IMG/VR virus record: IMGVR_UViG_3300020577_002484
Location: 1-64,000 of that record
From: a virus
Taxonomy: Duplodnaviria > Caudoviricetes
DNA length: 64,000 bases
Strand: one strand, 5' to 3'
Shown in pieces: positions 5,173-36,522 of this stretch (positions are counted from its first letter, which is position 1; each line of letters opens with the position of its first letter). The translations under genes and the position numbers were made by a program. Below the pieces are notes generated by a model. That model was not told where the DNA came from, did no database searches, and saw only the letters and a list, made by a program, of their open reading frames with translations.

Positions 5173-5447
5173 TTGCGAACTACCGGCAACCAGTGTTGGT
5201 AACAATCATCGTGAACTATGAACAACTTGTTGAAGCTGCTAACGTACTCACGAACCTTGTGACCATGCACAAACCCACAATGGCAAAGCTGACATTTTCC
5301 AGGATGGTGGTCTACCACCTTGACTGGAGAAGAACCCCAACGATCCATCATGTCAGCAGAACCAAGCCCCGCTGGGCCTATAATCTCATGCGTCTCTTCA
5401 GATTGCGGGGCGTAATCTGTGAAACCTAGCTTCCTTAGGGATGCCAT
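5169..5447 (-). CDS. Hypothetical protein, possible Zn-binding (CQLC...HDDC)
   Basis: Coupled ORF. Confidence 0.55.
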   Translation of the reverse strand: MASLRKLGFTDYAPQSEETHEIIGPAGLGSADMMDRWGSSPVKVVDHHPGKCQLCHCGFVHGHKVREYVSSFNKLFIVHDDCYQHWLPVVRK

Positions 5448-7881: not shown

Positions 7882-8413
7882 GACTTTCTAATCTCTCAAA
7901 TGCGTTGTCGCAATGAGGATGATTCGCGTTCCATCTTCTAGCATACAAGTGGACCAACCCACCTGCTTCTGTGAAATCCTTCACGTTGTGATCACCGTCA
8001 TCGACCAACAAAGAAGTAGCTCTAGCACAAACGTGCTTACAGGCACCCAACAGGTTTCTCTTTCTTGTGAACTGCGGGAAGTGCTTGTGGAGCCATCTGT
8101 GCTTACCAACCATTGTTTCTGGCTTGCTTCCGGGCGTTGACAGGATATAGATGCGACTACCAAAATAACCCTCTAACAATCTAACAATGTCGTGGGCTTC
8201 CTCGGTAGGATCGAGGTTCTCGAAGAAGTCTGCATCGACCCCTTTCCAGAACTGGTTATCACTGATCCCCCATAACTTGGCCATGCTCCACTCGCCGAGT
8301 GCTTCATGGTTTCCGTCGTGGTAAGGATAAGGGAGCTGTCTAAGCTCACATATGCCTTTAGTGAAATCAGCAATGACACCATCCATATCCAGAACGCACA
8401 TATCAGGTTTCAT
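7859..8413 (-). CDS. 5'(3')-deoxyribonucleotidase (HAD family)
   Basis: DMDGVIADF, GKHRWL, LLVDDGDHNV. Confidence 0.85.
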   Translation of the reverse strand: MKPDMCVLDMDGVIADFTKGICELRQLPYPYHDGNHEALGEWSMAKLWGISDNQFWKGVDADFFENLDPTEEAHDIVRLLEGYFGSRIYILSTPGSKPETMVGKHRWLHKHFPQFTRKRNLLGACKHVCARATSLLVDDGDHNVKDFTEAGGLVHLYARRWNANHPHCDNAFERLESHVKELFS

Positions 8414-15897: not shown

Positions 15898-15989
15898 TGG
15901 AGAGGGTGGGAATCGAACCCACAACCCACACAATTAGGTTAATCGGAAGGGAACCTAATCGTGTGTTCTACCGTTTGATTTACCTCTCC
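15898..15989 (-). ncRNA. tRNA-like element with an 18-nt expanded anticodon arm
   Basis: Perfect acceptor stem and T-arm; degenerate D-stem; 14-bp anticodon hairpin with 11-nt loop. Confidence 0.75.
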
Positions 15990-16135: not shown

Positions 16136-16786
16136 TTACTCTTTCCGAAACTCATTGAACCTCATCTCGATAGCATAAAGTGTATTACACACAAGAGACG
16201 TTGAAACACCCATTTGGTAGGCTACCTCTTTTTGAGTGTAGCCTTGCTTAAGTAGCTTGATGATCTGTAACTCACGATAGTTTTTGATTGAGCGATCCAA
16301 ATCCTCAAGCAATTCTTCCGTATTACCATTAGATAACCCGATGTCAACCTCGTTAGGGTCAACGTAGGTTATCTTGACTGGACAATGATCCCCTCCCTTG
16401 CTGTTCAATAATAAGCTCCTGTTGCCAAGAATCTTATTATTCATGAACGCTACGAAGTCTTTGCACCTAGTGTGCATCTTCGCAACTGCAAAACCAGTGA
16501 AGTTATCATCGTACATTTCTTTTATCAGGTCGCAAGCCTGACAGACACCAGTTACTGCTTCTGACAGCAGATCATTACCAAACTTTGGGTAGAAGAAGGA
16601 ATACTGTGAGGCCACAACGAAACAAAGTCTCAAGTGTCCTTGGACCAGATCGGACTTTGCGGTACTGTCGCCACTCTTCAATCGGAGCACCAAACTCTTA
16701 ATCTGTTCTTCTGTTAGGTCTTTGATCTTGTCACTTAGAGGGCTTCTTATGCAACCCTTGCGTGACTTGCGTCTGAATAAGTACAT
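16136..16786 (-). CDS. Sigma70-family RNA polymerase sigma factor
   Basis: GDSTAKSDLVQGHLRLCFVVASQY (region 2) and YTQKEVAYQMGVS (region 4 HTH). Confidence 0.8.
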   Translation of the reverse strand: MYLFRRKSRKGCIRSPLSDKIKDLTEEQIKSLVLRLKSGDSTAKSDLVQGHLRLCFVVASQYSFFYPKFGNDLLSEAVTGVCQACDLIKEMYDDNFTGFAVAKMHTRCKDFVAFMNNKILGNRSLLLNSKGGDHCPVKITYVDPNEVDIGLSNGNTEELLEDLDRSIKNYRELQIIKLLKQGYTQKEVAYQMGVSTSLVCNTLYAIEMRFNEFRKE

Positions 16787-17214
16787 CAGGGCAGCTTGGC
16801 ACTTCTCCTTGTGTTTTCTAATTTATCTCTGATCTTTGACCAGTGGTTTCCTGTCTCTGTGATGCCCATTTCGTAGGATCTTGTTACCATTCTTGAGGCA
16901 ACCTCTATCAGGGCAGCACGGAAGTTTGTCCAACCGTACTTCTTCACCAACTGATACACCTCTTGAATGAGAGGTGTATCAAGGTTGGACGACATGGTAT
17001 TCAGTTTGGATCTCTCAGACATAGCTGCCATAAACCTTTGGTATTCGGCAGCTACGTTTGGGTCTGATCGAATGTACTTGTTGAACACTGTTTGGTACTG
17101 TACCCCGATTGGAAGATCGAAGAAAGAATCATGTTCTTTGGTGTGGATAAGACTCCACAGTTCGTGGTTTGAAGCCAAGAACTTTGTCATCGTTTCCGCG
17201 TGGTACAATACCAT
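16786..17214 (-). CDS. Hypothetical protein, first gene after a sigma70 promoter
   Basis: AGGA RBS; TGATG coupling to the sigma gene. Confidence 0.7.
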   Translation of the reverse strand: MVLYHAETMTKFLASNHELWSLIHTKEHDSFFDLPIGVQYQTVFNKYIRSDPNVAAEYQRFMAAMSERSKLNTMSSNLDTPLIQEVYQLVKKYGWTNFRAALIEVASRMVTRSYEMGITETGNHWSKIRDKLENTRRSAKLP

Positions 17215-17227
17215 GATTCATCCTAGA

Positions 17228-17267
17228 GGTACGATTACCAAATGTGGTACTGGCCGCCGTACCATTT
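17228..17267 (-). promoter_or_regulatory. Conserved 40-bp double-palindrome element, copy A
   Basis: 31/40 identity to 31265-31304; TGGTAC-N8-GTACCA plus TGGTA-N4-TACC. Confidence 0.8.
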
Positions 17268-17315
17268 CCAAGAATCCAGTACCATGCGGCCCGAACGAAC
17301 CAAAATCCCTCCTCC

Positions 17316-17344
17316 ATTATATCGACCTCTCGCACGGCATGCAA
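17316..17344 (-). promoter_or_regulatory. Sigma70-type promoter
   Basis: TTGCAT-N17-TATAAT on the minus strand with an upstream T-rich UP-like tract. Confidence 0.75.
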
Positions 17345-17434
17345 GCTAAGAAAACGGAAAAAATTCAGAAAGTTAAGAAAGTTTTGAAAGATACGCACAA
17401 GGTAAACAAAAATGGTACCGATACCAGTACCACT

Positions 17435-17866
17435 TTACAAGAGCACCACTTGTACTACTTTCAGATCATTGGGTGTTCTTTCTCGACGGGAAGGGTCGTA
17501 TACCTTTTGTCCGTCCCAAGCCACAGCGTGAGTGGGTTCAATGATAACACACTTGCCGTGGGACATGTACTTTTTCACCCGATCATCATTGTTGTAAACG
17601 TCATGATGTGTACTTTTGTCTGGGGTCCAAAGACGCACTTTCGCAGGGACCATCATGGCTTTGATACCAAAGCTGAACCAGCAGAAGTCGAACATTTCAG
17701 AGGTGTGAAACCCTCTTCTATTCATTGGTTCGTGCAAGTCTGGAAACCAAATCTCTGAGCCATCATGCATCAGATAATCCGTGATCTTCTTCACATCAAT
17801 GTCAAGAGCAATAGCGAAAGCTGTAGGCAAACAACTCCACATATTGGGTTGAGTCTGCATTTTCAT
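17435..17866 (-). CDS. Papain-like (C39-like) peptidase
   Basis: QTQPNMWSCLPTAFA (Q...C) and THAVAWDG (H...D). Confidence 0.65.
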   Translation of the reverse strand: MKMQTQPNMWSCLPTAFAIALDIDVKKITDYLMHDGSEIWFPDLHEPMNRRGFHTSEMFDFCWFSFGIKAMMVPAKVRLWTPDKSTHHDVYNNDDRVKKYMSHGKCVIIEPTHAVAWDGQKVYDPSRRERTPNDLKVVQVVLL

Positions 17867-17868
17867 AT

Positions 17869-18081
17869 TTATAGTTCCAGTAGTTCGTGGAAAGGGTTTA
17901 CCTGAAGCTCCCAACACTTGATAAAGAAGGAGATTGGTAAATCATCATCTCTATATGGACTGGCTTCAACGTATGAACAAACGAAGCAATAACCAGGTGA
18001 ACACTTAACTGAGCCAACACCTACATCAACGTATTCTCCATCCTCAAAGGTATCGTTACCACAGACGGGGCATGTTAGCAT
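17869..18081 (-). CDS. Zn-ribbon protein
   Basis: CPVCG...CFVC; start set at MLTC. Confidence 0.6.
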   Translation of the reverse strand: MLTCPVCGNDTFEDGEYVDVGVGSVKCSPGYCFVCSYVEASPYRDDDLPISFFIKCWELQVNPFHELLEL

Positions 18082-18130
18082 GGTAAAAGAAAAAAGGGTG
18101 AATGAGATTACTCCCATCCACCCTTTATAG

Positions 18131-18652
18131 TTACTCCTGTACAGTGGTGGCTTTGGCCTCTTCGAGACACTCAGGAGTGATCTCGATACAGGTGTCAGCC
18201 ACAGCACGCAGTTCGCGAGGAATGCCACAAGACACGATAGTACACTTTTTACCGCGTGCTTTGACGTACTCAACGATCGGAGCAAGTTCAGGATCGGACG
18301 AGCAAATAGCAACAATGTCCAGCTTGTCAATCATATTGACAACATCCAGAGCAATGCTAACATTCCAATTCGTCTTAATAAGACGAACTACTCCATCCCC
18401 TCCTTGTCTTGATCTCGGTTGTTTGTACTTAGGCTCAAAGCCAATCTTCTTCAGACAAGTTATGAACTTGGTTGCTTCATCCTTGGCCTGAACACCATAA
18501 GCCACAGCACGGTAAATGGTATCACTACCTACAACTAACTCTCGCAACTGCCCATAGTCCAACTTCCTGTCAGGGAATTTCTTCCCCACACAGTAGAACA
18601 GACTACTAACATCAGCAAAGATACCGACAGTTTTCATACTCAGATTTGACAT
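18131..18652 (-). CDS. NYN-domain (LabA/DUF88, PIN-fold) protein
   Basis: IFADVSS, IALDVV, SSDPELAPIVEYVKARG, LRAVAD. Confidence 0.85.
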   Translation of the reverse strand: MSNLSMKTVGIFADVSSLFYCVGKKFPDRKLDYGQLRELVVGSDTIYRAVAYGVQAKDEATKFITCLKKIGFEPKYKQPRSRQGGDGVVRLIKTNWNVSIALDVVNMIDKLDIVAICSSDPELAPIVEYVKARGKKCTIVSCGIPRELRAVADTCIEITPECLEEAKATTVQE

Positions 18653-18677
18653 CTTTTCTGTCTTTCAACAATAAAGC

Positions 18678-21600
18678 CTACCCTACGTTAATCTGACACT
18701 GTGGTCCATCACAGTAGAGTTCAGCTTCCGGGTTTGAATTTGTTAGTTCACTCCAGTCGATAGGTTGTATCTGTTTGATACGGTGGTTATATTCTTCTTC
18801 TGTGATACCCTCTTCAGGCATTTGCTGGTAAACACCAGCAGCCGTATGAGGCAACAAAGAAACAGACTTGGTGAGAGGGGCAATTGAAGACAACACATTC
18901 TCAATGTCATCTTCCTCGTGTTTGATATTGTAGGTATACAACTTGACATCGACAGGGGTTCGAGTCTCGTTACGAGTTACCTTAATCTTGTGAAAAGAGT
19001 TCTCACTCTCATGCTCGATCTCATCGAAATCGAATCCATAGTCGTGAGCAATCTTTTTCGCAGATTGGAGGGTATCAGCAGTAAAAAGGTGTTTTACCAA
19101 TACCCACTTAGGCTTGAAGTATAAAGTGTTTGATACGGCGTTATCCGCCCACTCTCTCTGAAGAACAATGATGTTATTTGATTGTTCCCAAACAGTAACT
19201 TCCTCCGCTGGCTTGGCTGGGCCTTGGATGATTGGGAACTCGAAAACATAAGTTCTCGTCGGATCAGTAACATCAGGTTCATGCGGAACTCCAGCCTTCA
19301 CCAACAGTTTGAAGATAGGCTGGAACGTGGCGACTCTGACTCTGCGAACCGTCCACTTGAACGTAGGATAACCAGCACCTGAAGTCTTGCCAGCCAGTTT
19401 TGGTGTAGTACCACCTGGCTTGCAAGTTGTCTTACGAATAGCCTCAGGAACTCCGGCCTCTCCATTGGCCCAACGGTTCGTGTCACAAACAACCTCGTAA
19501 CCTTTACGCAACAATGCAACAACCTTGTTCAACTCCGAGTTGTGTTTCCAACCTGTGAAGTCGACCAAGGACACGCCGATTCGGCGATTCTTGGCGACAA
19601 CCTTGTTTGTAGACTTCCTGTGCGTCGGTAGCAGCGACACTGTTGAGCAGTAGAAGGTAGCATACTCACAAGCTTTGAGCCACTGTGCATCATTGTTGCA
19701 ACGTGTGGGCAAAGTTTCAGCCAGATTACACACTTCACGATGCTCAAGTGGTATTTCACCACAGTTAGAAACATTGCATCCTTGGGCCCAGAAAGTATGA
19801 CTCGGACCATTGACAGTAATGTCCCAAGTCTCTTCCTCGCCAAGATACTCCTCAGACAAAATCTCATAAGTCAATTTTGACTTGTTGTTTTTACCAGTAC
19901 CATTTACAATTTTCTTGAGCTTTTCAGTTTTGTAGTTCTGAATGAACCCAATGTATTTGTAGAACACATCTCTGTCTGTAGAGATTTGAAGATTCCAAGA
20001 GTCTCGGCAAAGATAGGTACCATTACCAAACTCAATAATCTTACCTTCTTCCTTGGTATAGTATGATCTGATCCCTAAGGCGGACAGCATCATCTGAGCA
20101 GCTTCAATCACTTTGAATGATGAAGCCTTCAGACATACTCTACCACGAATCACTGAACCATTGGCAGAATACAAACCACGAAGGAACCCAGCCATCTTGG
20201 ATGGGTTACAAAGGTAGAACCTTCCATCAATAGTCCGTTCATAGGTAAGCGGCAGCCTATGGATAGTAGTCTTAACCTTGTGACAGTAGTCCTTCGAGTA
20301 GGATTCACCAATCAGGTGTGCCACCTCACTTAAGAAGTAGTCATGGTCATTGGCACCAATGTTTAGGCAGACATGGTTATTCTCTTGAGATCCATCCCCA
20401 ACCACAAGACCGTCCATAATATCTTGAGGGTCAAGCTGATCGGTAGCAATACCGGCTGGGCCTTCCAGAACATCAATTCCAAAGGCATCCTTAACTTCAA
20501 CCTTCATACCTTCACAAACTACTCTATGGTTAGCTGTCCCATAGAATACATTTGCGTTGGTCCTATAGGCAAAGACAGGGTTGACACCTGTTGACCACTT
20601 TTTCTCAATAGTAACCCATCCATCTTCTGACCAAATCTTGGAGCCAACGTCAACCTGATCAAAGGTAGTAATACCATTTGGAGTTAGTACCTTTGATGAC
20701 GCTCTTAGGCAAGGGTTCATACCAGTGGCATAGTCCTTCCTTGCATATTCTGTCTTACCAATGCGTCCCAAAGGGAGGTTCATCGAATTGATAAAGCCGG
20801 GTTCACCATTCTTAATCACTCTACGAGCGATCTCACCCAACTGTTGAAAATCCTCAGGTTCTTCAAGCTTGACAGAATTGTTACTCATGTAACCAACTTC
20901 TGCACGGTGTGGGAACGTCGTGTAATCCTTGAGATTCATAAAGGTCTCATCATAGATGCTACCACTAAGGATCTCAGCACTACGTCTTACGTTCCCAGAT
21001 ACCACGCAACAGCCTGTGGCATTCATAATGTCAGACTTGAGCAAGATGGTATCATAGTATGGATCTTCCAGATACATACGCATGTACTTGTCAATCCTAT
21101 TATGAAGTTCAATCAAGGGTCCGGGACCAGAAGCGACCCCGCCAAATCCTTTGATAGGTTCACCCTCAGGTCTGATCTCATCATAGATGAATCGTGGTCG
21201 TGAGCAACCCTTGGTAAGATAAGACTCAATAAGAGACTTAGTAGAGTCGCACCACCCTTCGCGAGAGTCTTCGACGACAAAGTCTCGTCCATTGCTCTTT
21301 GGTGAGAATACCTCAAGACCGGATCTGAGTGGTTGGGCACCAACTCCAACTCCATTCATTAAGCAGTCCATGGCCCAATGGATGTCGTCACCAATCACAT
21401 CAGTGAGATTGGTGAAAGCACAATTGTACAGAGCCATCGCACCACGTTGATAAACGAACTCTGTTCCCATAGCCCACAGTCCACGTCCCGGCGGGAGCCA
21501 ATACATATTGAACATGGAAATGGCAAAACCCAAAGCATAATGCTGCCACTGAAAGTCATCCCAGAACAGATGATTCTTGATGTAATGGTCCTTACGGATG

Positions 21601-21788
21601 GACATTACACCTTCAGTAACACGAATTACACAATCAGCCCACGACTCCATCTTACCATTTAGCATCATCCTTGAATAGTGTTTATAGAAGATAAATTCGC
21701 TGAACTGACCATACCCGAAGTTCGCGGACATGGAACGAATTGTATCTTTAGTTTGTTCTGCAAGCACAAACCTCTGCGTTACATACAT
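18678..21788 (-). CDS. nrdJ: Class II (B12-dependent, RTPR-type) ribonucleotide reductase containing an intein
   Basis: PPGRGLW, LYNCAF, GNVRRSAE, NP/CGEIPL, KPGGT. Confidence 0.92.
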   Translation of the reverse strand: MYVTQRFVLAEQTKDTIRSMSANFGYGQFSEFIFYKHYSRMMLNGKMESWADCVIRVTEGVMSIRKDHYIKNHLFWDDFQWQHYALGFAISMFNMYWLPPGRGLWAMGTEFVYQRGAMALYNCAFTNLTDVIGDDIHWAMDCLMNGVGVGAQPLRSGLEVFSPKSNGRDFVVEDSREGWCDSTKSLIESYLTKGCSRPRFIYDEIRPEGEPIKGFGGVASGPGPLIELHNRIDKYMRMYLEDPYYDTILLKSDIMNATGCCVVSGNVRRSAEILSGSIYDETFMNLKDYTTFPHRAEVGYMSNNSVKLEEPEDFQQLGEIARRVIKNGEPGFINSMNLPLGRIGKTEYARKDYATGMNPCLRASSKVLTPNGITTFDQVDVGSKIWSEDGWVTIEKKWSTGVNPVFAYRTNANVFYGTANHRVVCEGMKVEVKDAFGIDVLEGPAGIATDQLDPQDIMDGLVVGDGSQENNHVCLNIGANDHDYFLSEVAHLIGESYSKDYCHKVKTTIHRLPLTYERTIDGRFYLCNPSKMAGFLRGLYSANGSVIRGRVCLKASSFKVIEAAQMMLSALGIRSYYTKEEGKIIEFGNGTYLCRDSWNLQISTDRDVFYKYIGFIQNYKTEKLKKIVNGTGKNNKSKLTYEILSEEYLGEEETWDITVNGPSHTFWAQGCNVSNCGEIPLEHREVCNLAETLPTRCNNDAQWLKACEYATFYCSTVSLLPTHRKSTNKVVAKNRRIGVSLVDFTGWKHNSELNKVVALLRKGYEVVCDTNRWANGEAGVPEAIRKTTCKPGGTTPKLAGKTSGAGYPTFKWTVRRVRVATFQPIFKLLVKAGVPHEPDVTDPTRTYVFEFPIIQGPAKPAEEVTVWEQSNNIIVLQREWADNAVSNTLYFKPKWVLVKHLFTADTLQSAKKIAHDYGFDFDEIEHESENSFHKIKVTRNETRTPVDVKLYTYNIKHEEDDIENVLSSIAPLTKSVSLLPHTAAGVYQQMPEEGITEEEYNHRIKQIQPIDWSELTNSNPEAELYCDGPQCQINVG
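19764..20711 (-). mobile_element. Intein (316 aa) with LAGLIDADG homing endonuclease
   Basis: CLRASSKVLT...TWDITV..PSHTFWAQGCNVSN/C; DGLVVGDGS and GFLRGLYSANG blocks. Confidence 0.92.
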
Positions 21789-21797
21789 GGGCTATTC

Positions 21798-22175
21798 TCA
21801 CTTCATTCTTAATTGTTGTTTCAGGAAATACTCCCTCCAGTTGTGAGGTTTCCTAAGTTTGTCTATCTCAGAATCAGAAGCACCAACCAAGATCCATATG
21901 GCTGCACCGTGTGCTTCAAAGATTGGAAACCACTCACATTGGGCAGGGGTAAAGACATGCTTCTCAGGATGTTTTACCTCTACCCACCTTTCACCGTATG
22001 TCTTGTGCCGACAGTACAAGTCAGGGAAGCCAGCTTGGAACATGCTACCATGAGTAGGTTTCACCAACCATTCTCGGTACCTTAGTTCCCTTATAATGGC
22101 TTCCTGAATATCAGCTTCTGACTCTTTGTGCTTTTTTAGTGACCCCATTGGCTCCATTGACGGTCTCCATAGCAA
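21798..22175 (-). CDS. VRR-NUC-family nuclease / resolvase
   Basis: EADIQEAI, GFPDL, WVEVK, TPAQCEW. Confidence 0.85.
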   Translation of the reverse strand: MLWRPSMEPMGSLKKHKESEADIQEAIIRELRYREWLVKPTHGSMFQAGFPDLYCRHKTYGERWVEVKHPEKHVFTPAQCEWFPIFEAHGAAIWILVGASDSEIDKLRKPHNWREYFLKQQLRMK

Positions 22176-22380
22176 GTGACAAAGTGATCATTTGAACGAC
22201 GTTGTGCAAGGACTCAACTTTCTTCGTTTGCTTGTACTCGTTGAGGTACTCCTCAGCACGGATCAAACAATACTCTGGGCTACTGTTGGCAATGGCTGTT
22301 CTGAACAGGATAGCGGTCGGGTCGAAAATGAATTGACGAATGATTTCTTTGATGAGGGTTTTGGTAACACGTTGTTTCAT
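22111..22380 (-). CDS. Hypothetical protein
   Basis: ORF in operon. Confidence 0.6.
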   Translation of the reverse strand: MKQRVTKTLIKEIIRQFIFDPTAILFRTAIANSSPEYCLIRAEEYLNEYKQTKKVESLHNVVQMITLSLAMETVNGANGVTKKAQRVRS

Positions 22381-22389
22381 GGTTTTCTT

Positions 22390-22710
22390 TCACATTTTCA
22401 TAATTTTGAGGAAGTCACGTTTCAACTCTTCAAGGTGCCCCTTGATGAGATTCTGTTCTTGCAGTCCAGTAATCTCATGAAGAAGGTACATCTGCCAAAC
22501 TGATGAGGTCAGTCCCGGAAGTGTCCAGACTTGGTTCGCTTGGGTCCAAGGACCATCATAAAGGTACTTTACCGCAAGCTCGATCAAATCTTTGTTTTGC
22601 CTCGGTACTATACCATCCAACACATCTTTCAATCTCTCAATGAAGATTGAGTCTACGCCCGAGTAGAGTAGAATCTCAACCATGTTGTCTAGCATCTCAG
22701 CAAAAGACAA
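22390..22710 (-). CDS. Hypothetical protein
   Basis: ORF in operon. Confidence 0.6.
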   Translation of the reverse strand: MSFAEMLDNMVEILLYSGVDSIFIERLKDVLDGIVPRQNKDLIELAVKYLYDGPWTQANQVWTLPGLTSSVWQMYLLHEITGLQEQNLIKGHLEELKRDFLKIMKM

Positions 22711-22714
22711 TTCT

Positions 22715-22954
22715 TCACTCGTCTTGATCTGATTCAGTTTGGTCCTCTATTCTTACATTTTCTTGATCTTGAAGAAGTCTCAAAGCCTTATTGTACGAGG
22801 CAACGAACTCGCAGCATTCTCTGTACACAATATACTCACACTCCGATAAGGTCTTACCCTCAGCACGCATATAAGACATACGCATGATGATATTGTAAGC
22901 CATAACGTAGGATTCGCTTATTTGGACGCCCAACTTTTCATCCCCATCTTCCAC
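22715..22954 (-). CDS. Hypothetical protein
   Basis: ORF in operon. Confidence 0.55.
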   Translation of the reverse strand: MEDGDEKLGVQISESYVMAYNIIMRMSYMRAEGKTLSECEYIVYRECCEFVASYNKALRLLQDQENVRIEDQTESDQDE

Positions 22955-25215
22955 TCCATCCCAATGAGAGGGATTAGAGGTCTGAATGACTCTACTGTGT
23001 CACTCACGATCTTCTTTACTTGAAGTTCATAACCCCATTTTACTGGGCACAAGATTTCGTCATGAATGTTCATGGGCATGACAATCCATTCATTGATACC
23101 AGAAGGTTGAATCTGCCAAATCTTCTCTTGCACAATCTTAGTGATCCCTGCACCAGTACCTTGAATCTCATGGTTGGTAGCTGATCTCACATTAGACTGT
23201 TGCAAGGCGAAAGCTGCACCAAACAAAGCTGACCGTGCTGCACCTTGTTCGGTCTGTTGACTTCCATCCCTGCGTCTGTTGACCTTTGCTTTGAAGGTCA
23301 ACCAAGACTTGGGAGGGTCGTTACCCAGATCAAACAAAGCCTTGCAAATCATGTTTTCTAGGGTATAGTACCTTTTGAAGCCAAGCAAGGTTGGCATGAA
23401 CTCAGCAGGCTCTTTCCAGATGATCCTGCTACCTATACCACCCACCTGTCTCATGGACTGGAACATATTGGTAACACGAATCTGGGCACGAGCCACACCC
23501 TCATAGGTCTTGGCCCAATTCTCCATCGTGTTATCAGCCATCTCTTGACTGAGACCAATATTGTTTACAAGAGAGTGGGCAGTACCACCATACAAAGAAC
23601 TGAACAGTCCAGACTTACCCTTTTTGTATTTGTCATTCTCAGTATGCTGAGAAAGCAAGATACTATCGTAGGTCTCTTCGGGAAACATGGCCTGTGCGAA
23701 CAGAGCATGGATCTTTTTACCAGACTTAAGTTCCTCTGTGAGCTTAGGATCATCGTAAATTGAAACTGCAATACCAACCTCAAACGAATCGAAGTCACCT
23801 CCACAAAGACTCATGCCCGGCCAATTTAGGTAAAAGCATTCTCGAACTTCTTTGGTAGCTTTGATACCTTGAGGGTTCAGTCCGTCGGCCCCAGCCATAC
23901 GACCAGACAGGGCACCAATGATTTTGAATGAAGCGTGAAACCGTTCAGCTTGGAGAAGTTTGTCAAACAGTTCACGTTCTTTTCCAGCGGTCCGTGCAGC
24001 AGTAACAGCCTTTGCACGTTTAGTGATCTCATTGTCAATGGTACCGGTACCACCACAAGTCTTGCACTCCTTATCAGGTTCCCCTGACACTAAGGTGCAA
24101 TCACATTCATCACCCCAAGTGGCCATCTCTTCCATAGTTACCTTATCGGTGCTATTCTCGGTGACAGCTACTTGTTCTGGAGTCAACAGGGGGAAGATCC
24201 ATCTCTTCACATAGTGATGGTCCGTTGGGGCGGACTTTTCCTTCTGCTCGGCAATCTGTCTCTGCTTTTCTATCTTAGTGGTATCAACCCTGAAACCACG
24301 CCAACGTATTGCAGCGACAGCACAAGCAAGATTACTGTCCACATCTCCCACCTCAGGTCGTCCGAAATAGTCGTAAAGACGCCGGGTATAATCCACATCT
24401 TTTCTGGCGTACGTTCTCGCAAGTTCATTATACTCCCAATGGTCTATGTGTAACTTGATCATTTGGGGCCATGTCCCCTGCCAGTTTTTCTTACTAGCGA
24501 AAGGAATGGCCTTGGCATAAGGAGCGTGTCCTACCTCTTTAGGTAGGAACTTCCTGTCCACCTCAATGTCAGAGAAACGAAGAATATCATCTTCCTTCTC
24601 ACCCAAAGCATCTATGGCTAAGACCTTCAAAGCTGTTGAAGGCTTGAACTTCAGGACGACATCTTTGAAGTCTGGATTAACGTGTCCATCACCATCGGTG
24701 ACATCATATACTTGCCACCGTTTGTTGGTATCACCACCACGAGCGAAGTAAATGTCTTTGAGCGGTATACGTGCTTCAAGTTCATCGGCAAGCTGGAAGG
24801 CAATGGCTGTAGGAACCCTCTTGATACGAATATCATGACGGTCCATGCACGATTGGTATGGGCCTTTGCGAGCTTCAAGGAACAAGTCGCACGCTTTGAC
24901 CGGCTTAAGGCATAATCCATCTCTGGCATAAGGTTCAAGCTCACCAAGTTCATCAATCAGATCAACAGGGTAAGCGTCCCAATCATCAATGAGTGAGAAG
25001 ACAGTATAGGCTTTGCATAGTTGGAAATGGTCGAATGCAAGGTTGAACCCGACCACCCCTGTCTCATGCTCCATGAACATCTTGATTAGGCGAAGGTTAT
25101 CTCCAATGGTATTGTACCAGAAGTTATGAAGATAAATATCACCATCATTTACTGCATATTGCAGTAAGACTGGCATTCCGTGCAGGCCGCAAGTTTCTGT
25201 ATCATAGAAGATCAT
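22918..25215 (-). CDS. polA: Family A DNA polymerase with 3'-5' exonuclease domain
   Basis: YDTETCG, FNLAFD, SGRM, DFDSFE, KSGLFSSLYG, NHEIQGTGA, IHDEI. Confidence 0.92.
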   Translation of the reverse strand: MIFYDTETCGLHGMPVLLQYAVNDGDIYLHNFWYNTIGDNLRLIKMFMEHETGVVGFNLAFDHFQLCKAYTVFSLIDDWDAYPVDLIDELGELEPYARDGLCLKPVKACDLFLEARKGPYQSCMDRHDIRIKRVPTAIAFQLADELEARIPLKDIYFARGGDTNKRWQVYDVTDGDGHVNPDFKDVVLKFKPSTALKVLAIDALGEKEDDILRFSDIEVDRKFLPKEVGHAPYAKAIPFASKKNWQGTWPQMIKLHIDHWEYNELARTYARKDVDYTRRLYDYFGRPEVGDVDSNLACAVAAIRWRGFRVDTTKIEKQRQIAEQKEKSAPTDHHYVKRWIFPLLTPEQVAVTENSTDKVTMEEMATWGDECDCTLVSGEPDKECKTCGGTGTIDNEITKRAKAVTAARTAGKERELFDKLLQAERFHASFKIIGALSGRMAGADGLNPQGIKATKEVRECFYLNWPGMSLCGGDFDSFEVGIAVSIYDDPKLTEELKSGKKIHALFAQAMFPEETYDSILLSQHTENDKYKKGKSGLFSSLYGGTAHSLVNNIGLSQEMADNTMENWAKTYEGVARAQIRVTNMFQSMRQVGGIGSRIIWKEPAEFMPTLLGFKRYYTLENMICKALFDLGNDPPKSWLTFKAKVNRRRDGSQQTEQGAARSALFGAAFALQQSNVRSATNHEIQGTGAGITKIVQEKIWQIQPSGINEWIVMPMNIHDEILCPVKWGYELQVKKIVSDTVESFRPLIPLIGMEWKMGMKSWASK

Positions 25216-25223
25216 AGGTTGCC

Positions 25224-25424
25224 TTAGTTATTGCTTGGGTTGATCCCGCCACGCTTCCACGCCTCACCATCGTCTTCATCCTTAGGAGGGGTGTAAGTGA
25301 AATCATCAGAAGGTAGTTTCTTAACTACACCGTGTACTATCACCGTTGCACAGACTGTTGCAACACTGAAGCACACAGTAGCAAGGAAAGCTAATGTCAT
25401 AACAAGATCATTCAGATTGTTCAT
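25224..25424 (-). CDS. Small single-TM membrane protein
   Basis: Start set at MNNLND; hydrophobic helix. Confidence 0.55.
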   Translation of the reverse strand: MNNLNDLVMTLAFLATVCFSVATVCATVIVHGVVKKLPSDDFTYTPPKDEDDGEAWKRGGINPSNN

Positions 25425-26367
25425 CGCTTGTGAGTTCCTTGAGTCTGATGGCACGATCGCGGATTTCCTGCGGCATCTTCCACTCTCTACCGAACCCCTC
25501 TGCGTAGGATTCGATCTCCTCAAGAAGTTCAAACGTGTTCACATGACCGGCCACCCAACCAAGGACTCTAGCTTCCAAGCAAGGTCCAACAGCCTCCATG
25601 ATCATGTCTTGAATGGAATAAATCTCATTCAATGATCGTATCTTGTTAGAGAGTGGGTTAGACACCTTAGCTTCAGAAATCTTCTTGGCCTTACGGTTGA
25701 TGGTAGACTCACCGCGAGCTTTCGATTCCTTCAAACAACGGTAGGTTGCGTAAAGGTCTTCTTTGACCCCAACAAGAGGGAGCAGGGTTTTGGCTTGCTC
25801 AAAGGTGATCGTACCAATTGACAACTCATCCTGAATGTCTTGTGGCAACTGAAGAATGTCGATTCTGTCCTTGACCCAAGAGCCAGAGAAACCTACCATC
25901 TTACCGATGGAAACGTAGTCCATTCCAAGAACTCTAAACCTTTTCATGAACTCGGCAATCTTGATCAGACTAATATCCTTACGGTGGATATTCTCTGCCA
26001 AGTTGTGACGCATGGCATCAAGTTCTGAAAGTCCAGTTCTGATGGATGCACGAATAGTGGGGAGGCCGAGGTGCTTGCAGGCTGTATATCGTCTGTGGCC
26101 CACAACGATCTTATATTTGTACTTACCGTTCGGGTCATTGAACGGCTGGACAAGGATGGCTTGCAACAGGCCATCCCTCTTAATCTCTGCCATCAGATCC
26201 ATCACATCAAACTTGGTAATGTCACCACGACAATTGAAACTCCCGTCGCAGAAGATTTCTGCAATAGGGAGTTCCTGTTCAGTAATGTGGTCACCATTAT
26301 TGAATGTGACAGGTTCAAGCTCCCGCTTGAACTCATCAGATACTTCTTGTTGAGTGTACTCAGACAT
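25408..26367 (-). CDS. ParB/Srx-like protein 1 (ParB N-domain plus HTH)
   Basis: GLLQAILV, IVVGHRRYTAC, ENIHRKD, YVSIGKMVGFSGSWV. Confidence 0.85.
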   Translation of the reverse strand: MSEYTQQEVSDEFKRELEPVTFNNGDHITEQELPIAEIFCDGSFNCRGDITKFDVMDLMAEIKRDGLLQAILVQPFNDPNGKYKYKIVVGHRRYTACKHLGLPTIRASIRTGLSELDAMRHNLAENIHRKDISLIKIAEFMKRFRVLGMDYVSIGKMVGFSGSWVKDRIDILQLPQDIQDELSIGTITFEQAKTLLPLVGVKEDLYATYRCLKESKARGESTINRKAKKISEAKVSNPLSNKIRSLNEIYSIQDMIMEAVGPCLEARVLGWVAGHVNTFELLEEIESYAEGFGREWKMPQEIRDRAIRLKELTSDEQSE

Positions 26368-28378
26368 AGATTGCCTCTTCCAGTTGTCCTAATGAGATGT
26401 CTTGAAGTTCTTTCTTCTTCCGAAGATTCTCAAGGACCAATTGATCTGATGGTAAATGGATGAGGTCAATGATGGTTGCACCTTTGTTCACATCCATACT
26501 GATACGATGAATACGATCTTCTGACTGCATTCTTGCGTCAGCCGAGAAAGTGTTGGAGTAGTACAAAATGGTAGGAGATTTGGTCAGGGTAAGTCCAGTA
26601 CCGGCAGCTTCAGGATTCCCAATGAAAACTACTCTGGGGACTTCTTCCAGCTTCTCCTGAAACACGTTAAGCAGGTCCGTTGGGCTGAGTTGAGTATTGA
26701 AGGAACTTCTGTACCCTCTACCATCAACTGCAATCCACTCCCACTTCATAGACTTTGCGATTTCAATGCAGCGGTCCACAGAACCCATGAACCCCGCAAA
26801 GACCACAAGACGACCAACATCCTCATGCTCATCAAGTAAGTCACGAAGATACTGTTCTTTAGGCGTGTCAAGCTGTCTTGCAGTCCTCTCATAAGTCTTG
26901 ATCTCACCAACACCATCACAGTGCTGACAGGCCAGTTGCTCCTGTTTGTAGAGGTTCGGGAATTCAACGCTGTTAATGGTAATTGATTCAAGTTCTTCAT
27001 CGCTGACGAAATCTCTTCCATTGAGAAGGCCAAGCTCCGACATGAACTCAAAGGTCTTTGCAGGGCCACAATACACATCTTGTAGTGTGGTACGGGTACC
27101 TTCGCAGAGTGGGCATGTTTGCTTACCCTTCTCAGTTTCTTCATATAGAAACCCATCAGACAACTCCCTCAGATGTGTCAGAGCTTTGATCGTACTTGAA
27201 GACTTCTTAACCAACAACCGTGCAGCACGCAACGTGTCTGTAGTCGGTGGTAGCTGTACCACTTTGTAAATCTTGTCAGGAAGATTCAGACACTCTTTCT
27301 TCGTCTTGACAATGACCAGACCTTGCATACGCTTGTACAGGTTGGACACCTCATTGACACACTTCTTATAGTCATGACGGTGGAGGTTAGACAAAGAGTG
27401 TTCTATGGAGTCTTTACCTTCTCCGCAAACGTCACAACGTAACTCGTTGTCCCTCCAAGCTTTTCTCTCAGGGTACACCCCTCCTGTACCATTATCCTTT
27501 TGTACAACGATAGCCAATCTGTAGGTGAATTTGTGAATGTCACCCTCCATGATATAGCCGGGGCGGGCAATCTCACACTGGTGGTACCAGTCCACCGGAG
27601 TCTTAGGTGCCGGGGCACCAGACATCTCAATCACATAACCCGCAGGACCATGTTCTCTACGAATGGCATCAGCAATGTACATAGCGGCTTTGGACCGTTG
27701 TGCTGTTGGAGTCTTGAACCTTGCAGATTCATCGAACACAACACCTTGATGGATCAATCGACCGGGAGTCCAATTGTTTGCGTACTTCTCAAGTGAGGAG
27801 CATGTGACAAAGGTAGGATTGACCTTACTGTTCCATTTCTTGAATTCCAACTTGACAGAGTTCAAAGCGGAAGCAGGACCGACCCAAAGCCAATCCTTGA
27901 CTCCGCTTATCTCCATCGCTTCCATAGCTGATAGTGTCTTGCCAGTACCCATCTCACCAGCGATAATCGCGTAGTGTCTCGTGATGAAGTGCTGGATGAA
28001 TTCATACTGATGAGGGTACACGTTCCTACCAGAATGCAGCATGGTAATCATACCATCTGACATCTTTGTGTGCGGGATGTCAATCAGAGGAATGTCATAT
28101 TGGAAGTAAGGATTCTTACCTTCCATGAATTCAATCTGGAACCAGTTGTGGAAGTTATCGTCGCACGACCATTGTTTGACAGGGTTATCATCAAACCCGT
28201 GCCACTTCATACCGGACATACACTTCTTCAGATCGTCAGTCAGCTTCTTGTTGAAGCCATACTGCAACCACAGTTTATTACCTTTCTTGGTAAAAATGAC
28301 AGGAACAGATCGTTTGATCCCATTGTCCATTGTCACGATAAGGTCTGTTCTGTAACTTTCACCATGCTCAAGGATCAT
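26360..28378 (-). CDS. SNF2-like SF2 helicase
   Basis: GEMGTGKT, VFDES, MSGAP, GTGLTLT, QSEDRIHR. Confidence 0.9.
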   Translation of the reverse strand: MILEHGESYRTDLIVTMDNGIKRSVPVIFTKKGNKLWLQYGFNKKLTDDLKKCMSGMKWHGFDDNPVKQWSCDDNFHNWFQIEFMEGKNPYFQYDIPLIDIPHTKMSDGMITMLHSGRNVYPHQYEFIQHFITRHYAIIAGEMGTGKTLSAMEAMEISGVKDWLWVGPASALNSVKLEFKKWNSKVNPTFVTCSSLEKYANNWTPGRLIHQGVVFDESARFKTPTAQRSKAAMYIADAIRREHGPAGYVIEMSGAPAPKTPVDWYHQCEIARPGYIMEGDIHKFTYRLAIVVQKDNGTGGVYPERKAWRDNELRCDVCGEGKDSIEHSLSNLHRHDYKKCVNEVSNLYKRMQGLVIVKTKKECLNLPDKIYKVVQLPPTTDTLRAARLLVKKSSSTIKALTHLRELSDGFLYEETEKGKQTCPLCEGTRTTLQDVYCGPAKTFEFMSELGLLNGRDFVSDEELESITINSVEFPNLYKQEQLACQHCDGVGEIKTYERTARQLDTPKEQYLRDLLDEHEDVGRLVVFAGFMGSVDRCIEIAKSMKWEWIAVDGRGYRSSFNTQLSPTDLLNVFQEKLEEVPRVVFIGNPEAAGTGLTLTKSPTILYYSNTFSADARMQSEDRIHRISMDVNKGATIIDLIHLPSDQLVLENLRKKKELQDISLGQLEEAIYV

Positions 28379-28380
28379 AT

Positions 28381-28905
28381 TTATTTCCTGTGTTGAAGTT
28401 TGAATGTGTTGTCTGGTAGCTGTACCCGGTTATAATCTGAGAACATGGCCCCAAGGCCCTCTGAATCAAATAACTCAATAGCCCTATCCCCAAATGACCT
28501 CAGTGAGAAACTTGCGGAGCCTGTGCAGCTATTTATTACTGCTGACCTCCATTGATCGAGGTCTCCTGAAATTATAGTGAAAAGGAAACCGTCTGATGAT
28601 TTACCCGACACTGTGGAGAGCTTGGTATTTTGTATGACCTCATTAAGCTCATCCAATGTCGAGAACATAGCCACGTTATAGTGGACATGGTCCAACGCAA
28701 AGCCCGGATTCTTACCAACTAAAGAGGGTTTAGAACCGGGTGACTTAATTTCGTGTAAGGTGGTGAGAAACCCTAATGGGATTTCTGGCTTGATGCCTAC
28801 CTCATCAAGTGTCTTGGATACCGAACGGTGGAGAATCTGATTAGCTCCAGCTAAGTAAGAGTTCCAATTTATGTTCGTCTTACCAATGATTATTAGCTTT
28901 ATCAT
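28381..28905 (-). CDS. Probable degenerate ThyX-fold protein
   Basis: ALDHVHY and IISGDLDQWR resemble ThyX SPFEH and TGNLRAWR; no RHRxxxxxxxS motif. Confidence 0.5.
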   Translation of the reverse strand: MIKLIIIGKTNINWNSYLAGANQILHRSVSKTLDEVGIKPEIPLGFLTTLHEIKSPGSKPSLVGKNPGFALDHVHYNVAMFSTLDELNEVIQNTKLSTVSGKSSDGFLFTIISGDLDQWRSAVINSCTGSASFSLRSFGDRAIELFDSEGLGAMFSDYNRVQLPDNTFKLQHRK

Positions 28906-28920
28906 AGATTCCCTAAAAAG

Positions 28921-28960
28921 AAAAAGAGGTTGACCCCTGTGATGGAGCCAACCTCTTTTT
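28921..28960. terminator. Intrinsic terminator (bidirectional type)
   Basis: AAAAAGAGGTTG-N16-CAACCTCTTTTT. Confidence 0.7.
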
Positions 28961-28967
28961 GGTATTG

Positions 28968-29666
28968 TTACCGTGCCCGGTCCGTGGCAGCAGCCGCGGT
29001 GGCATCAACGGACTTCACATCGGTATCGGTGGGGTTGGCGAATTTCTCAGCGATACGAGTGAGTTCAGCATGGTCAGGCAGATTTTCCTGAGCGATGGGT
29101 GTCGAGGACGCAAGGATCTGTGGGGCTTCCCACTTGTACTTTGCATTCTTCGCAAGACGCCACTTCAACAGGATAGCCTTACCCATAGACGATTCCACAT
29201 TGTCAGCTTCGTTACGAGCCGAAGCGTTGTTCATGTGGTAAACCACAAACTTCTTCTGGGTCGGGAGCCAGAGCAGGAACTCGGGGCCGTACATGCAGCC
29301 AGAGTCCTTTTCGCTGGACTTCTCTTTGACCTTCTGGTACTCCGGATTTTCCGGATTGTAGAAGGTCTCGAACACTTGCCCGATGATTCGGACAGCTTTC
29401 CATCGCCAAGAAACAGGAATAGCAACGACCTCTTCGCCAAGGTCGATCAAGACTTGATTCTCGGTGAGGCCATAGTGACCTCTGCTGATGGTGCCCTCCT
29501 TCACTTCGCCACTGTTGCTACCATACAACTTGATGTATGGGAGGAAGCCAGCGGATCGGATCTCGCTCTTGAACACTTCGCGGTTTGCGTGTTGGTTCTG
29601 GGCGAGTCCCGACATAGGAATGAGCGATTGTTCTGCGGGGACTGTTGCGGGAAGGTCAGACGACAT
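28968..29666 (-). CDS. Putative ssDNA-binding/recombination protein
   Basis: LPYIKL near the N-terminus, beta-rich core, flexible tail; position among replication genes. Confidence 0.5.
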   Translation of the reverse strand: MSSDLPATVPAEQSLIPMSGLAQNQHANREVFKSEIRSAGFLPYIKLYGSNSGEVKEGTISRGHYGLTENQVLIDLGEEVVAIPVSWRWKAVRIIGQVFETFYNPENPEYQKVKEKSSEKDSGCMYGPEFLLWLPTQKKFVVYHMNNASARNEADNVESSMGKAILLKWRLAKNAKYKWEAPQILASSTPIAQENLPDHAELTRIAEKFANPTDTDVKSVDATAAAATDRAR

Positions 29667-29703
29667 GAGGTTGTTCTTTCGTTTTGTTTATTGAGAGGGT
29701 AAA

Positions 29704-29730
29704 CCCGGCCCCAAGAATCATGGGGCCGGG
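29704..29730 (-). terminator. GC-rich hairpin/terminator after ParB-like gene 2
   Basis: CCCGGCCCCA-N7-TGGGGCCGGG, then TTT on the minus strand. Confidence 0.6.
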
Positions 29731-29748
29731 TACTGATACCAAGATCGC

Positions 29749-30864
29749 TTAGCCATCAACCTTTTCGGTCGAGGCAGGAGCTTCAGCAGCAGGGGGAGCG
29801 TAGTGGCCCTTCACCCAATGGTGCTCTTTGTCCCACGCCGCCATGGTGGCCTTAACGTCACCACCTTCCTTGATGGTCTTCGCTTCGAGAGCGAACCGTT
29901 CAGCCTTGAGTTCGGCTTCCTTCAGTTGCTTCTCTTTGCGTTCCTTCTCGGAAGTGGTACGCTTCTCAGCGATCTTACGCTGCGATTCCTCGAACTTCTG
30001 CCGAGCGGTGGCAATCGAGTTCGGGTCTTGGTGCAGGCACCACAGCATGGCCAAACGCCAGCCAGCGATGGCGGAAGACTTGTCCGCGATCGAGGCATCC
30101 TGATCAACAAGCAGCTTTCCGATGTTCTGGGCTTCGGATTCTGACTTGATGTCGGTCATCTTCTGGAGTTTGACCACCGGGGTGAACACTTCACCACCAG
30201 CAGCACGTCCAGCACGCTTGGCAGCGGTCAGTTCCTTACGGAACGTATTGGCCGCTTGCAGGAATTCCTCGGGGGAGAGGTTCTGGGCACGTTCAATGAA
30301 CTGGCCCTGATTTTCTTCCGGCAGTTTCGCCAGAGCGTACGCATTGGTCAGCTTGATCATGCCGCTATCGACAAGTTCAGCCGCCTCTTTCGAGAGCTTG
30401 GCCAAGCCAAGCATCTCACCGAACCAAGCGGACGATTTGCCCAACTTGGCAGCCAGATCCCCGGACGTAAGGGTGGGGTTCTGGGCAAGGATGCGGACCA
30501 AGCTGCGAGCATACTCGGCGGGCTTGGTCTCTTTGCGTTGGACGTTGGTGATGATCTGGCTGATCATCGCTTCGTTGTCGTCCATCGCCTTGATGGTCGC
30601 GGGGATGGTATCAAGACCAGCCGCACGACTCGCCGTCAGTCGGTTCAGCCCATCAACGAGGAAATACAGAGGCTCGTTGTTTTCGTTCAGGGCCGGGGTA
30701 CCGTCACCCTCAAGGATCGGTCGGACCAGAACCGAGTTCAAGACACCCTTTTGGGCGATAGAAGCGGTAAGCTCCTTGAAGTCAACCGATTCCGTTTCCA
30801 CTTCGCGGAGGGCGACGGGATTTTCCTTGATCTGTGACAGCTTCAGTGTTGCGAGTTCGGACAT
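29749..30864 (-). CDS. ParB/Srx-like protein 2 with HTH and coiled-coil C-terminus
   Basis: ENPVALR, KGVLNSVLVR, LVDGLNRLTA, NVQRKE, DLAAKLGKSSAW; start set at MSELA. Confidence 0.85.
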   Translation of the reverse strand: MSELATLKLSQIKENPVALREVETESVDFKELTASIAQKGVLNSVLVRPILEGDGTPALNENNEPLYFLVDGLNRLTASRAAGLDTIPATIKAMDDNEAMISQIITNVQRKETKPAEYARSLVRILAQNPTLTSGDLAAKLGKSSAWFGEMLGLAKLSKEAAELVDSGMIKLTNAYALAKLPEENQGQFIERAQNLSPEEFLQAANTFRKELTAAKRAGRAAGGEVFTPVVKLQKMTDIKSESEAQNIGKLLVDQDASIADKSSAIAGWRLAMLWCLHQDPNSIATARQKFEESQRKIAEKRTTSEKERKEKQLKEAELKAERFALEAKTIKEGGDVKATMAAWDKEHHWVKGHYAPPAAEAPASTEKVDG

Positions 30865-30923
30865 AGTTTCTTTCTCGTAAGTTTGTGGTGTGGTACCTTT
30901 ACCCACGCCTGTCGATTGGTTCC

Positions 30924-30992
30924 CGTACCAAAAGTACGCCAGTCGTACCAAAAGGTCGGGTCCGTACCAAAAAGCCGGGGTGCGTACCAAAA
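30924..30992. repeat. Four direct repeats of CGTACCAAAA, 19-20 bp period (iteron/operator-like)
   Basis: Copies at 30924, 30944, 30963 and 30983. Confidence 0.9.
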
Positions 30993-31264
30993 GGACGCTC
31001 CAGCGATCGGACGGCGATAATTTTCCCCTGCAAAAGAGATTAGGATACTTGTCAAAAAAAATTTACTAATTTCGCCAAGTGACTGATTGGATTACTGTTT
31101 ATCCCTTTTCTATTATTGCACTAGGGAAGGGAAATTTTCTCTATCTAGTGCGATAAATAAAATGGGGTTGAGTGGTAAGTTAATCAGGGATCACTGGCAA
31201 TTTTTGGCCAAAAGTATCCTAAGATCAAAAGTAGGGAGGTAAGGTAATCAGTCATGGTATCGAA
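30993..31264. other. Divergent intergenic region, candidate replication origin and promoter pair
   Basis: AT-rich; flanked by iterons and the 40-bp element; inverted AAGTATCCTAA at 31040-31050 and 31212-31222. Confidence 0.5.
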
Positions 31265-31304
31265 AAATGGTACGGCAGGTCGTACCACAATTGGTATCAA
31301 TACC
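31265..31304 (+). promoter_or_regulatory. Conserved 40-bp double-palindrome element, copy B
   Basis: AAATGGTACGGCAGGTCGTACCACAATTGGTATCAATACC, 14 nt before the primase ATG. Confidence 0.8.
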
Positions 31305-34051: not shown

Positions 34052-34261
34052 ATGGGAATAGTAGAAACCTACAACCGACTAACAGACAAAGAAAAAGGTC
34101 TATTGCAGATTGGATTTGAGTCTGGATCAACACAAATTGTCATCTTCAAGGATGGTAGTTTCATCAGTGTCAACTTCGATCACAGAGATGGTTACATTGC
34201 CACCGAGTCCAAGAACCGTTGGACCGTGGGAGTAACTAACGAAAAAGAAAGTGTCTTATGA
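34052..34261 (+). CDS. Hypothetical protein
   Basis: Coupled ORF. Confidence 0.6.
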   Translation: MGIVETYNRLTDKEKGLLQIGFESGSTQIVIFKDGSFISVNFDHRDGYIATESKNRWTVGVTNEKESVL

Positions 34262-36482: not shown

Positions 36483-36522
36483 AAAAGCCCACAGATGGTA
36501 CTAATACCATCTGTGGGCTTTT
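36483..36522. terminator. Bidirectional intrinsic terminator between convergent blocks
   Basis: Perfect 18-bp stem AAAAGCCCACAGATGGTA-CTAA-TACCATCTGTGGGCTTTT. Confidence 0.9.

Follow-up and report, generated by a model that had tools for sequence, protein, structure and literature searches.

Composite palindromic elements upstream of two operons of an uncultivated phage, and the lineage-specific half-sites of its relatives

The 40-bp element and its two loci

The stretch of DNA described here (the window) comprises the first 64 kb of a 76,857-bp viral record from IMG/VR (IMGVR_UViG_3300020577_002484, Caudoviricetes; 82% complete), referred to below as G000, and carries two distant copies of a 40-bp composite element that consists of a TGGTAC-N8-GTACCA palindrome (the N8 palindrome) and a second palindrome with a 4-bp spacer (the N4 palindrome). 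Copy 1 precedes an operon that encodes a 142-amino-acid (aa) protein without a family match, followed by a 216-aa sigma-like/helix-turn-helix (HTH) protein (Table 1). Copy 2 precedes the gene for a 909-aa primase-helicase with a PrimPol-like N-terminus and a DUF5906/D5-type helicase region, which heads a rightward replication operon that also encodes a dNMP kinase, a D12 adenine methyltransferase, and an exonuclease. The gene for ParB2, a protein with ParB_N and HTH_ParB/KorB domains, is oriented divergently to that of the primase-helicase and heads a leftward replication operon that encodes a 232-aa protein, a helicase, a second protein with ParB_N and HTH_ParB domains (ParB1), and a family A polymerase.

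The reverse complement of copy 1 and the plus strand of copy 2 are identical at 31 of the 40 positions, which reproduces the count given in a first-pass annotation of this DNA. The mismatches, described there as confined to the spacers, are found in the spacers in eight of the nine cases (four in the first and four in the second); the remaining one, at position 26, lies in the linker between the two palindromes. The first three bases of the first spacer, GGC, are common to both copies. As the same annotation had it, each copy is followed 13 or 14 nucleotides (nt) downstream by an ATG, with AGGAT in between, and is preceded by an extra CATGGTA half-site (17286-17280 on the minus strand and 31253-31259 on the plus strand). 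When the 31 shared positions were scanned against the whole genome, all other places had at least 11 mismatches, so that a chance origin of the likeness between the two copies is excluded. The N8 palindrome in its exact form occurs three times in the genome, compared with 0.12 times in dinucleotide shuffles; it is rare and confined to control regions, all three copies being intergenic, and the third of them is not mentioned in the first-pass annotation.

The third copy is located in a terminator-like hairpin upstream of copy 1. The combination of a GC-containing hairpin, a T run, and a position at a gene end, as expected of an intrinsic terminator, is found there and, on the sense strand, is not found at copies 1 and 2. 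A putative promoter about 50 nt upstream of copy 1, missing from the scanner list because its -35 element matches the consensus at just 3 of 6 positions, would put copy 1 into the 5' leader, at about +45 to +85. On the other side, the 450-bp gap between the ParB2 and primase-helicase genes contains, in this order, an N4 palindrome, four CGTACCAAAA repeats, an AT-rich tract, further half-sites, and the 40-bp element. GGAAA(A/T)TTTCC-like tracts are present upstream of both elements (at about 31125-31140 and 17355-17368) and may represent UP elements or the site of a second factor.

Table 1. Features of G000 (window coordinates)
Feature	Position	Strand	Remark
40-bp element, copy 1	17228-17267	-	N8 palindrome and N4 palindrome; 13 nt before ATG of 142-aa gene (start 17214)
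40-bp element, copy 2	31265-31304	+	14 nt before primase-helicase ATG (start 31319)
Operon behind copy 1	16136-17214	-	142-aa gene, then 216-aa sigma-like/HTH gene
TGGTA-N3-TACCA palindrome	17201-17213		Overlaps start codon of 142-aa gene
Putative sigma70-type promoter, TTGCAT-17 nt-TATAAT	17316-17344	-	Located by eye
Terminator-like hairpin	17409-17436	-	On third N8 palindrome; 12 pairs and T run, at end of upstream 160-aa gene; z -3.95
Third TGGTAC-N8-GTACCA palindrome	17413-17432		Same gap as copy 1, upstream of its putative promoter
ParB1 gene	25408-26367	-	
ParB2 gene	29749-30864	-	Open reading frame (ORF) 29749-30990
N4 palindrome	30891-30903		27 nt upstream of likely ParB2 start (ATG at 30864)
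Four CGTACCAAAA direct repeats	30924-30992		Period 19-20 bp, same half-site, beside ParB2; AT-rich tract next
Extra half-sites in primase leader	31238-31259	+	Tandem GGTA-A-GGTA, then CATGGTA
Primase-helicase gene	31319-34048	+	
N4 palindrome	36496-36509		At tip of terminator hairpin between convergent genes; one of 79 copies
N4 palindrome	58161-58174		At terminator tip
Non-specific endonuclease/salvage neighbourhood genes	974-1783, 2000-2566, 2870-3841, 5398-6468, 7859-8413	- (974-1783)	

A half-site dispersed over the genome and replaced in relatives

The pentamers TGGTA and TACCA are both over-represented about threefold in G000, and their combination depends on spacing: TGGTA-N4-TACCA is found 24 times, compared with 0.54 expected from the pentamer counts and with 0 to 3 occurrences at each of the other spacings from 0 to 12. 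The shorter form, GGTA-N4-TACC, is present in 79 copies in the 76.9-kb genome, both inside and between genes, and the second palindrome of the 40-bp element is one member of this set. Within coding sequences (CDS) there are 60 such sites, as against 4.4 +/- 2.1 (maximum, 11) in 200 within-gene synonymous-codon shuffles; therefore, the excess has been imposed on the nucleotide sequence. Comparable enrichment is seen for none of the other 4-mer inverted pairs in G000, which indicates that this particular sequence, and not mere pairing or hairpin potential, has been selected. The sites prefer WWT before and AWW after them and are evenly spread, at about 1 per 957 bp or 6 to 14 per 10 kb; their spacing is no more regular than random (coefficient of variation, 0.88), and neither gene starts nor gene ends are preferred. 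A few copies are carried at the tips of terminator hairpins (Table 1). Both the third N8 palindrome and this abundant half-site turned up in a whole-genome motif scan of the kind proposed in the first-pass annotation, and the view of a two-site regulon was not borne out, because the half-site from which the element is built occurs roughly once per kb.

Relatives of the primase-helicase were found in 149 IMG/VR stretches, of which 80 loci with 45 to 57% identity, all from uncultivated viruses, were retained; such relatives are also found in genome bins of Opitutales and Planctomycetota. A nucleotide search with both element regions against 50,697 phage records gave no match, a protein search gave a single 26% partial match, and for the sigma-like protein a search recovered no related loci. 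Judging by these comparisons, none of the cultivated phages is related to G000.

The divergent arrangement of a ParB2 homolog and the primase-helicase gene is seen in 72 of 89 related loci. The sequence GGTAC was absent upstream of the primase gene in the 74 relatives examined, which points to a half-site specific to the lineage. Most relatives have inverted repeats of their own in that place, and a scan for enriched interrupted palindromes revealed in them a lineage-specific half-site (X), usually with a spacer of 3 to 5 bp, that belongs to the class GATT (most loci), GATG, GAGT, GGTT, GTTA, GTTT, AGTT, or ACTT. The gap follows a common plan: on the ParB2 side, a short X-N4-X' palindrome at or over the ParB2 ribosome-binding site (RBS) or start codon and then tandem XnX 9-mers arranged as an inverted pair; a middle part that is AT-rich and promoter-like; and, on the primase side, a second inverted XnX pair and, immediately ahead of the primase gene, a short palindrome. 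Of 35 non-redundant loci with a confident class, 26 show the class palindrome no more than 70 nt from the primase start, whereas 4.4 would be expected from the local density, and 23 of the 31 class-assigned loci with a ParB2 gene have it at the ParB2 start. The XnX 9-mers are nearly restricted to this gap in the relatives and are not enriched in G000. In the comparison with related phages, which had been suggested with the original motif in mind, the GGTAC sequence is absent, but the same architecture, written with a different half-site, is found in the same place, and the 40-bp element of G000 is the GGTA-class version of the primase-proximal module. Separately from the half-sites, a hairpin GTAAGTCC...GGACTTAC recurs in this gap whatever the class (L023, L026, L035, L036, L050, and L060).

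Such a gap could also be an origin of replication, with the repeats serving as initiator sites for the primase-helicase, much as octamers in ori and crr are read by alpha of phage P4, and copy 1 as a second, crr-like cis site. Four iterons with a 19- to 20-bp period, the AT-rich tract, and the inverted repeats beside the primase-helicase gene are consistent with this, as are the DnaA-box-like TGTGGATAA sequences, three to four in number, within this gap of L023, L036, and L050, a local minimum of the cumulative GC skew near 29-31 kb, and the change of primase-helicase column 300 in 7 of 9 non-GATT lineages. However, the GC skew merely tracks gene orientation, copy 1 lies in the leader of an unrelated operon, at a position conserved beside promoters in two relatives (G004 and G003, see below), and an initiator leaves the 60 selected intragenic sites unexplained. 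An origin function as the main explanation is thus unlikely, although for copy 2 it is compatible with an operator function, because an origin may well share the same gap.

Abundant palindromes of the respective class are found in several relatives. In G003 (48.5 kb, 40% GC), GATTT-N3-AAATC is present in 35 copies (0.36 expected), with 25 in CDS versus 2.55 after shuffling; the corresponding CDS counts are 23 versus 4.7 for GATT-N4/5-AATC in G002 (59.5 kb, 48% GC) and 9 versus 1.36 for GATT-N4-AATC in G004 (97 kb, 60% GC, with terminal repeats). The use of GATT by both G003 and G004, despite a 20-point difference in GC content, indicates that the motif follows the phage lineage and not host composition. 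Endonuclease_NS and ParB3 were rejected as correlates of palindrome abundance, since neither has homologs in the relatives examined. A 69-aa ORF directly after the primase-helicase gene (34052-34261, plus strand) has homologs mostly in relatives with strongly abundant palindromes; the median palindrome enrichment z is 18 in relatives with and 7.5 in those without a detectable homolog, a difference confounded by phylogeny and by the small size of the protein.

Two explanations that deal with the dispersed sites themselves have to be considered. The palindromes could form small hairpins on a single-stranded template at which the PrimPol-type primase-helicase starts lagging-strand fragments, palindromy serving both strands; the RSF1010 sites ssiA and ssiB, used by RepB', provide a parallel for palindromic priming signals. 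The uniform density along the genome, the clustering of sites beside the primase gene, and the change of half-site with primase lineage would fit such a role. Nevertheless, it is quite improbable: the sites are spaced no more regularly than random, the abundance is missing in close relatives with the same primase, a DNA hairpin of 4 to 5 bp is unstable, and the promoter-flanking pairs of G004 (see below) are left unexplained. Alternatively, the sites could be the by-product of a drive without a binding-site function of their own, as in the HIP1 palindrome of cyanobacteria, for which a methyltransferase- or repair-linked drive has been proposed (PMC5861425). The excess inside genes is HIP1-like, and a D12-class adenine methyltransferase is encoded within the primase operon, but this enzyme is conserved across the half-site classes (it is found in 43 of 89 loci, a count limited by flanks of about 3 kb), and the ordered placement of sites at promoters and start codons is not explained, so this alternative is very improbable.

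An arrangement of sites around promoters is seen in G004, where the 9-mer GATTTGATT occurs 12 times. Five sigma70-type promoters of that genome, with a good -35 and an extended -10 element, are each bracketed by a AATCAAATC near -75 and a GATTTGATT near +40, the latter closely preceding the RBS. One of the five follows immediately on the homolog of the 160-aa gene located ahead of copy 1, and the gene behind it is the homolog of the sigma-like gene; in G003, sites are also found at the sigma-like junction, among them a short palindrome immediately behind the start codon, like the one in G000. With sites at the same junction in both relatives, the position of copy 1 is conserved while its half-site is replaced, and the two placements emphasized in the first-pass annotation, before the replication operon and before the sigma-like operon, both bear lineage-specific sites in relatives. 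In addition, the repeat-flanked promoters of G004 (62745, 72735, 76550, 81860, and 88850) have a GGAAA(A/T)TTTCC-like tract immediately ahead of the -35 element, and positions 5040-5140 of that genome hold about eight tandem units of about 14 bp (GGATCGGGACTTGA-like) between a lone GATTTGAT and one AATCAAATC.

Since the arms in G004 flank promoters and one of them is untranscribed, the sites most likely act as DNA and not as RNA hairpins. The first-pass annotation had offered a twin-hairpin RNA leader as its alternative, in which the palindromes would fold in the 5' untranslated region and control translation or stability of both mRNAs, possibly through the phage NYN-domain RNase. Both copies do lie between a likely promoter and an RBS, some N4 palindromes do cap terminator hairpins, and an NYN-domain protein is encoded at 18131-18652. 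This alternative is nonetheless disfavoured and must be considered very improbable, as one arm in G004 is upstream of the -35 element, the minimum-energy folds of the two copies disagree and are weak (z only -2.0 and -1.5), and Rfam finds tRNAs only, with no match for the elements. Moreover, the arms are conserved while the loops vary and compensatory change is absent, gene starts and ends are not preferred by the 79 sites, and a stem of 4 bp is marginal.

Candidate readers and proposed roles

Both ParB1 and ParB2 have Pfam matches to ParB_N and HTH_ParB and match the structures of Spo0J, ParB, Noc, and KorB across the N-domain and the HTH (E values from 1e-14 to 1e-16). The CTP-binding box II (GERR-like) is canonical-like in ParB1 (GHRR) and degenerate in ParB2 (GLNR in G000 and GLHR in most relatives), and the recognition helices of both G000 proteins differ from the GATT-class consensus. 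Based on their location and on family precedent, ParB1 or ParB2 are the best candidates for the protein that reads the sites. A ParB-dependent thymine dioxygenase system described elsewhere involves ParBs that have no DNA-binding domain (PMC13229309). Two other proteins were considered as readers and rejected. The predicted fold of the conserved 232-aa protein (pLDDT 88.7) has only weak Foldseek matches (E values of 0.02 to 0.07) to a phiC31 integrase-RDF fusion and gp32-type single-stranded-DNA-binding folds, which makes it an unlikely sequence reader, and the D12 methyltransferase is well conserved irrespective of class: of its 83 conserved columns, no more than 2 change with the class.

Taken together, these observations favour, on balance, reading the 40-bp element as a composite DNA operator for a dimeric DNA-binding protein that the phage itself encodes and that evolves fast. 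The operator would be built up from the recognition half-site of this phage, (T)GGTA(C), which is used twice in inverted form, with the arms first 10 bp and then 4 bp apart, and would sit between the promoter and the RBS of both operons, with further half-sites beyond the promoter. The dimeric protein, likeliest ParB1 or ParB2 with their Spo0J/KorB/Noc-type HTH, would read the arms as double-stranded DNA, and its binding on either side of the promoter could gate or repress transcription by roadblock or bridging, in the way KorB does on plasmid RK2, and so act on early-to-middle expression of the replication and sigma-like genes. An operator for a dimeric phage regulator had been proposed in the first-pass annotation, with a ParB-HTH protein as a candidate; the comparative data favour the DNA operator, and the ParB-HTH protein stays a best candidate only.

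Given the genome-wide set of N4 sites, kept in genes by synonymous codon choice, this protein probably has a second role in marking the entire phage chromosome or loading onto it, and the dispersed sites would enable it to occupy the full length of the DNA. A more far-reaching and tentative possibility is a fast-evolving self-marking system of this uncultivated phage family, in which a ParB-fold or other dimeric protein, bound to a lineage-specific palindrome of 12 to 14 bp maintained at about one per kb by codon choice, coats, clamps, or organizes the phage chromosome, with composite sites controlling the replication and sigma-factor operons. An example of what this could achieve is telling phage from host DNA while the phage's non-specific endonuclease acts.

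Several observations weigh against the operator interpretation or against ParB1 and ParB2 as the readers. A promoter scan found no promoter for copy 2, and promoter positions in general rest on consensus guesses. No hyper-abundant palindrome is seen in G026 and G028, and only a weak one in G029, the three genomes closest to G000 on the ParB2 tree; all three encode both ParBs, so ParB presence does not predict abundance. The correspondence between recognition-helix residues and half-site class is not clean, as L009, a GATT locus, has the residues of the GATG class and the GATT class varies internally, and in a column switch test that covered six proteins, ParB did not stand out from the primase-helicase. 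Finally, the G000 site has four unspecified central bases, in contrast to the continuous palindromes of known ParB-type sites, and such an interrupted center is more like that of Cro/CI-type operators.

The gene set appears lytic (non-specific endonuclease, ribonucleotide reductase, ThyX, dCTP deaminase, and ligase), and a tyrosine integrase (PF00589) had no match in G000, nor did a ParA/Walker ATPase (PF13614) in the 76.9-kb, 82% complete record. The DNA/RNA non-specific endonuclease (Pfam E value, 4e-39) has dCTP deaminase, ThyX, an ATP-dependent ligase, and a 5'-nucleotidase as neighbors, a set of genes that looks like a module for degrading host DNA and salvaging nucleotides. The class II ribonucleotide reductase (18678-21788, minus strand) carries a LAGLIDADG-type domain inserted at residues 532-580, probably an intein or homing endonuclease. 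A third tRNA-like sequence (15898-15989, minus strand) scores 38.2 bits in Rfam and was not called by ARAGORN. Near the end of the record, a second and clearer sigma-70 family protein, with regions 2 and 4, is encoded at L154 12184-12828 (genome 76184-76828, minus strand); for a 434-aa protein (L154 9373-10677, genome 73373-74677, plus strand), Pfam gives no match at an E value of 0.01 or below. An ORF at the record start (1-325, minus strand) has a long terminal GAGGAC repeat that translates into an acidic Asp/Glu run.

Comparison with known systems

A two-copy operator alone would be routine, and the interest comes mainly from the family-wide pattern: in more than 100 metagenomic phages without a cultivated member, the replication control region, and often the whole genome, is written with a short palindrome whose half-site switches between lineages. 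The family could serve as a natural series of matched protein/site pairs for studying the evolution of DNA-recognition specificity, and it may represent a new use of ParB-fold proteins in lytic phages without ParA.

Among known systems, a 17-bp dyad repeat found in Cluster O mycobacteriophages, such as Corndog, comes closest; it is present in more than 30 copies, has no explained function, and occurs in genomes that encode a protein with a ParB-like domain (PMC4351075). The authors of that study, who also discuss the stoperators of Cluster A, predicted that it binds a dimeric protein in a role other than transcription initiation (PMC4351075). In both cases an interrupted palindrome is found tens of times per genome, between as well as inside genes (79 copies in G000, 60 of them in CDS). 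The G000 sequence is unrelated to that repeat, its arms are shorter (4 to 5 bp), and its density is higher (79 in 77 kb); in addition, G000 and its relatives show an intragenic excess demonstrated by codon shuffling, half-site switching between related lineages, and composite versions at conserved promoter or leader positions beside the ParB/primase-helicase pair. The family could therefore offer a testable handle on unexplained dispersed dyad repeats such as that of Corndog.

ParB-fold HTH proteins read palindromes of 13 to 14 bp at many sites, 12 for KorB (the OB sites of RK2) and about 70 for Noc of Bacillus; as a repressor of several operons, KorB uses both promoter-proximal and distal sites. 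The phage ParB proteins, which match both by sequence, are candidate readers of a site that has an unspecified 4-bp center and a far higher density. No ParA, the partner expected in a ParABS partition system, was found in the phage, and the CTP-binding motif of ParB2 is degenerate.

Cluster A phages such as L5 and Bxb1 have dozens of repressor sites, the stoperators, across the genome in addition to true operators. Those sites are asymmetric, oriented with transcription, and mostly located in short intergenic gaps of temperate phages, whereas the G000 sites are symmetric and mostly intragenic, in a genome in which no tyrosine integrase was found. In phage P4, the alpha gene for a primase-helicase is linked to repeated short sites (octamers) at ori and crr. 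G000 likewise combines a primase-helicase gene with repeated short sites at two distant loci, but its second locus is a promoter leader, a character that it keeps in relatives, and the genome has 79 further sites. G000 and its relatives stand apart from these parallels in three respects: the half-site switching in a large uncultivated family, the evidence of selection at the codon level, and the ordered use of the sites in a conserved ParB/primase control region.

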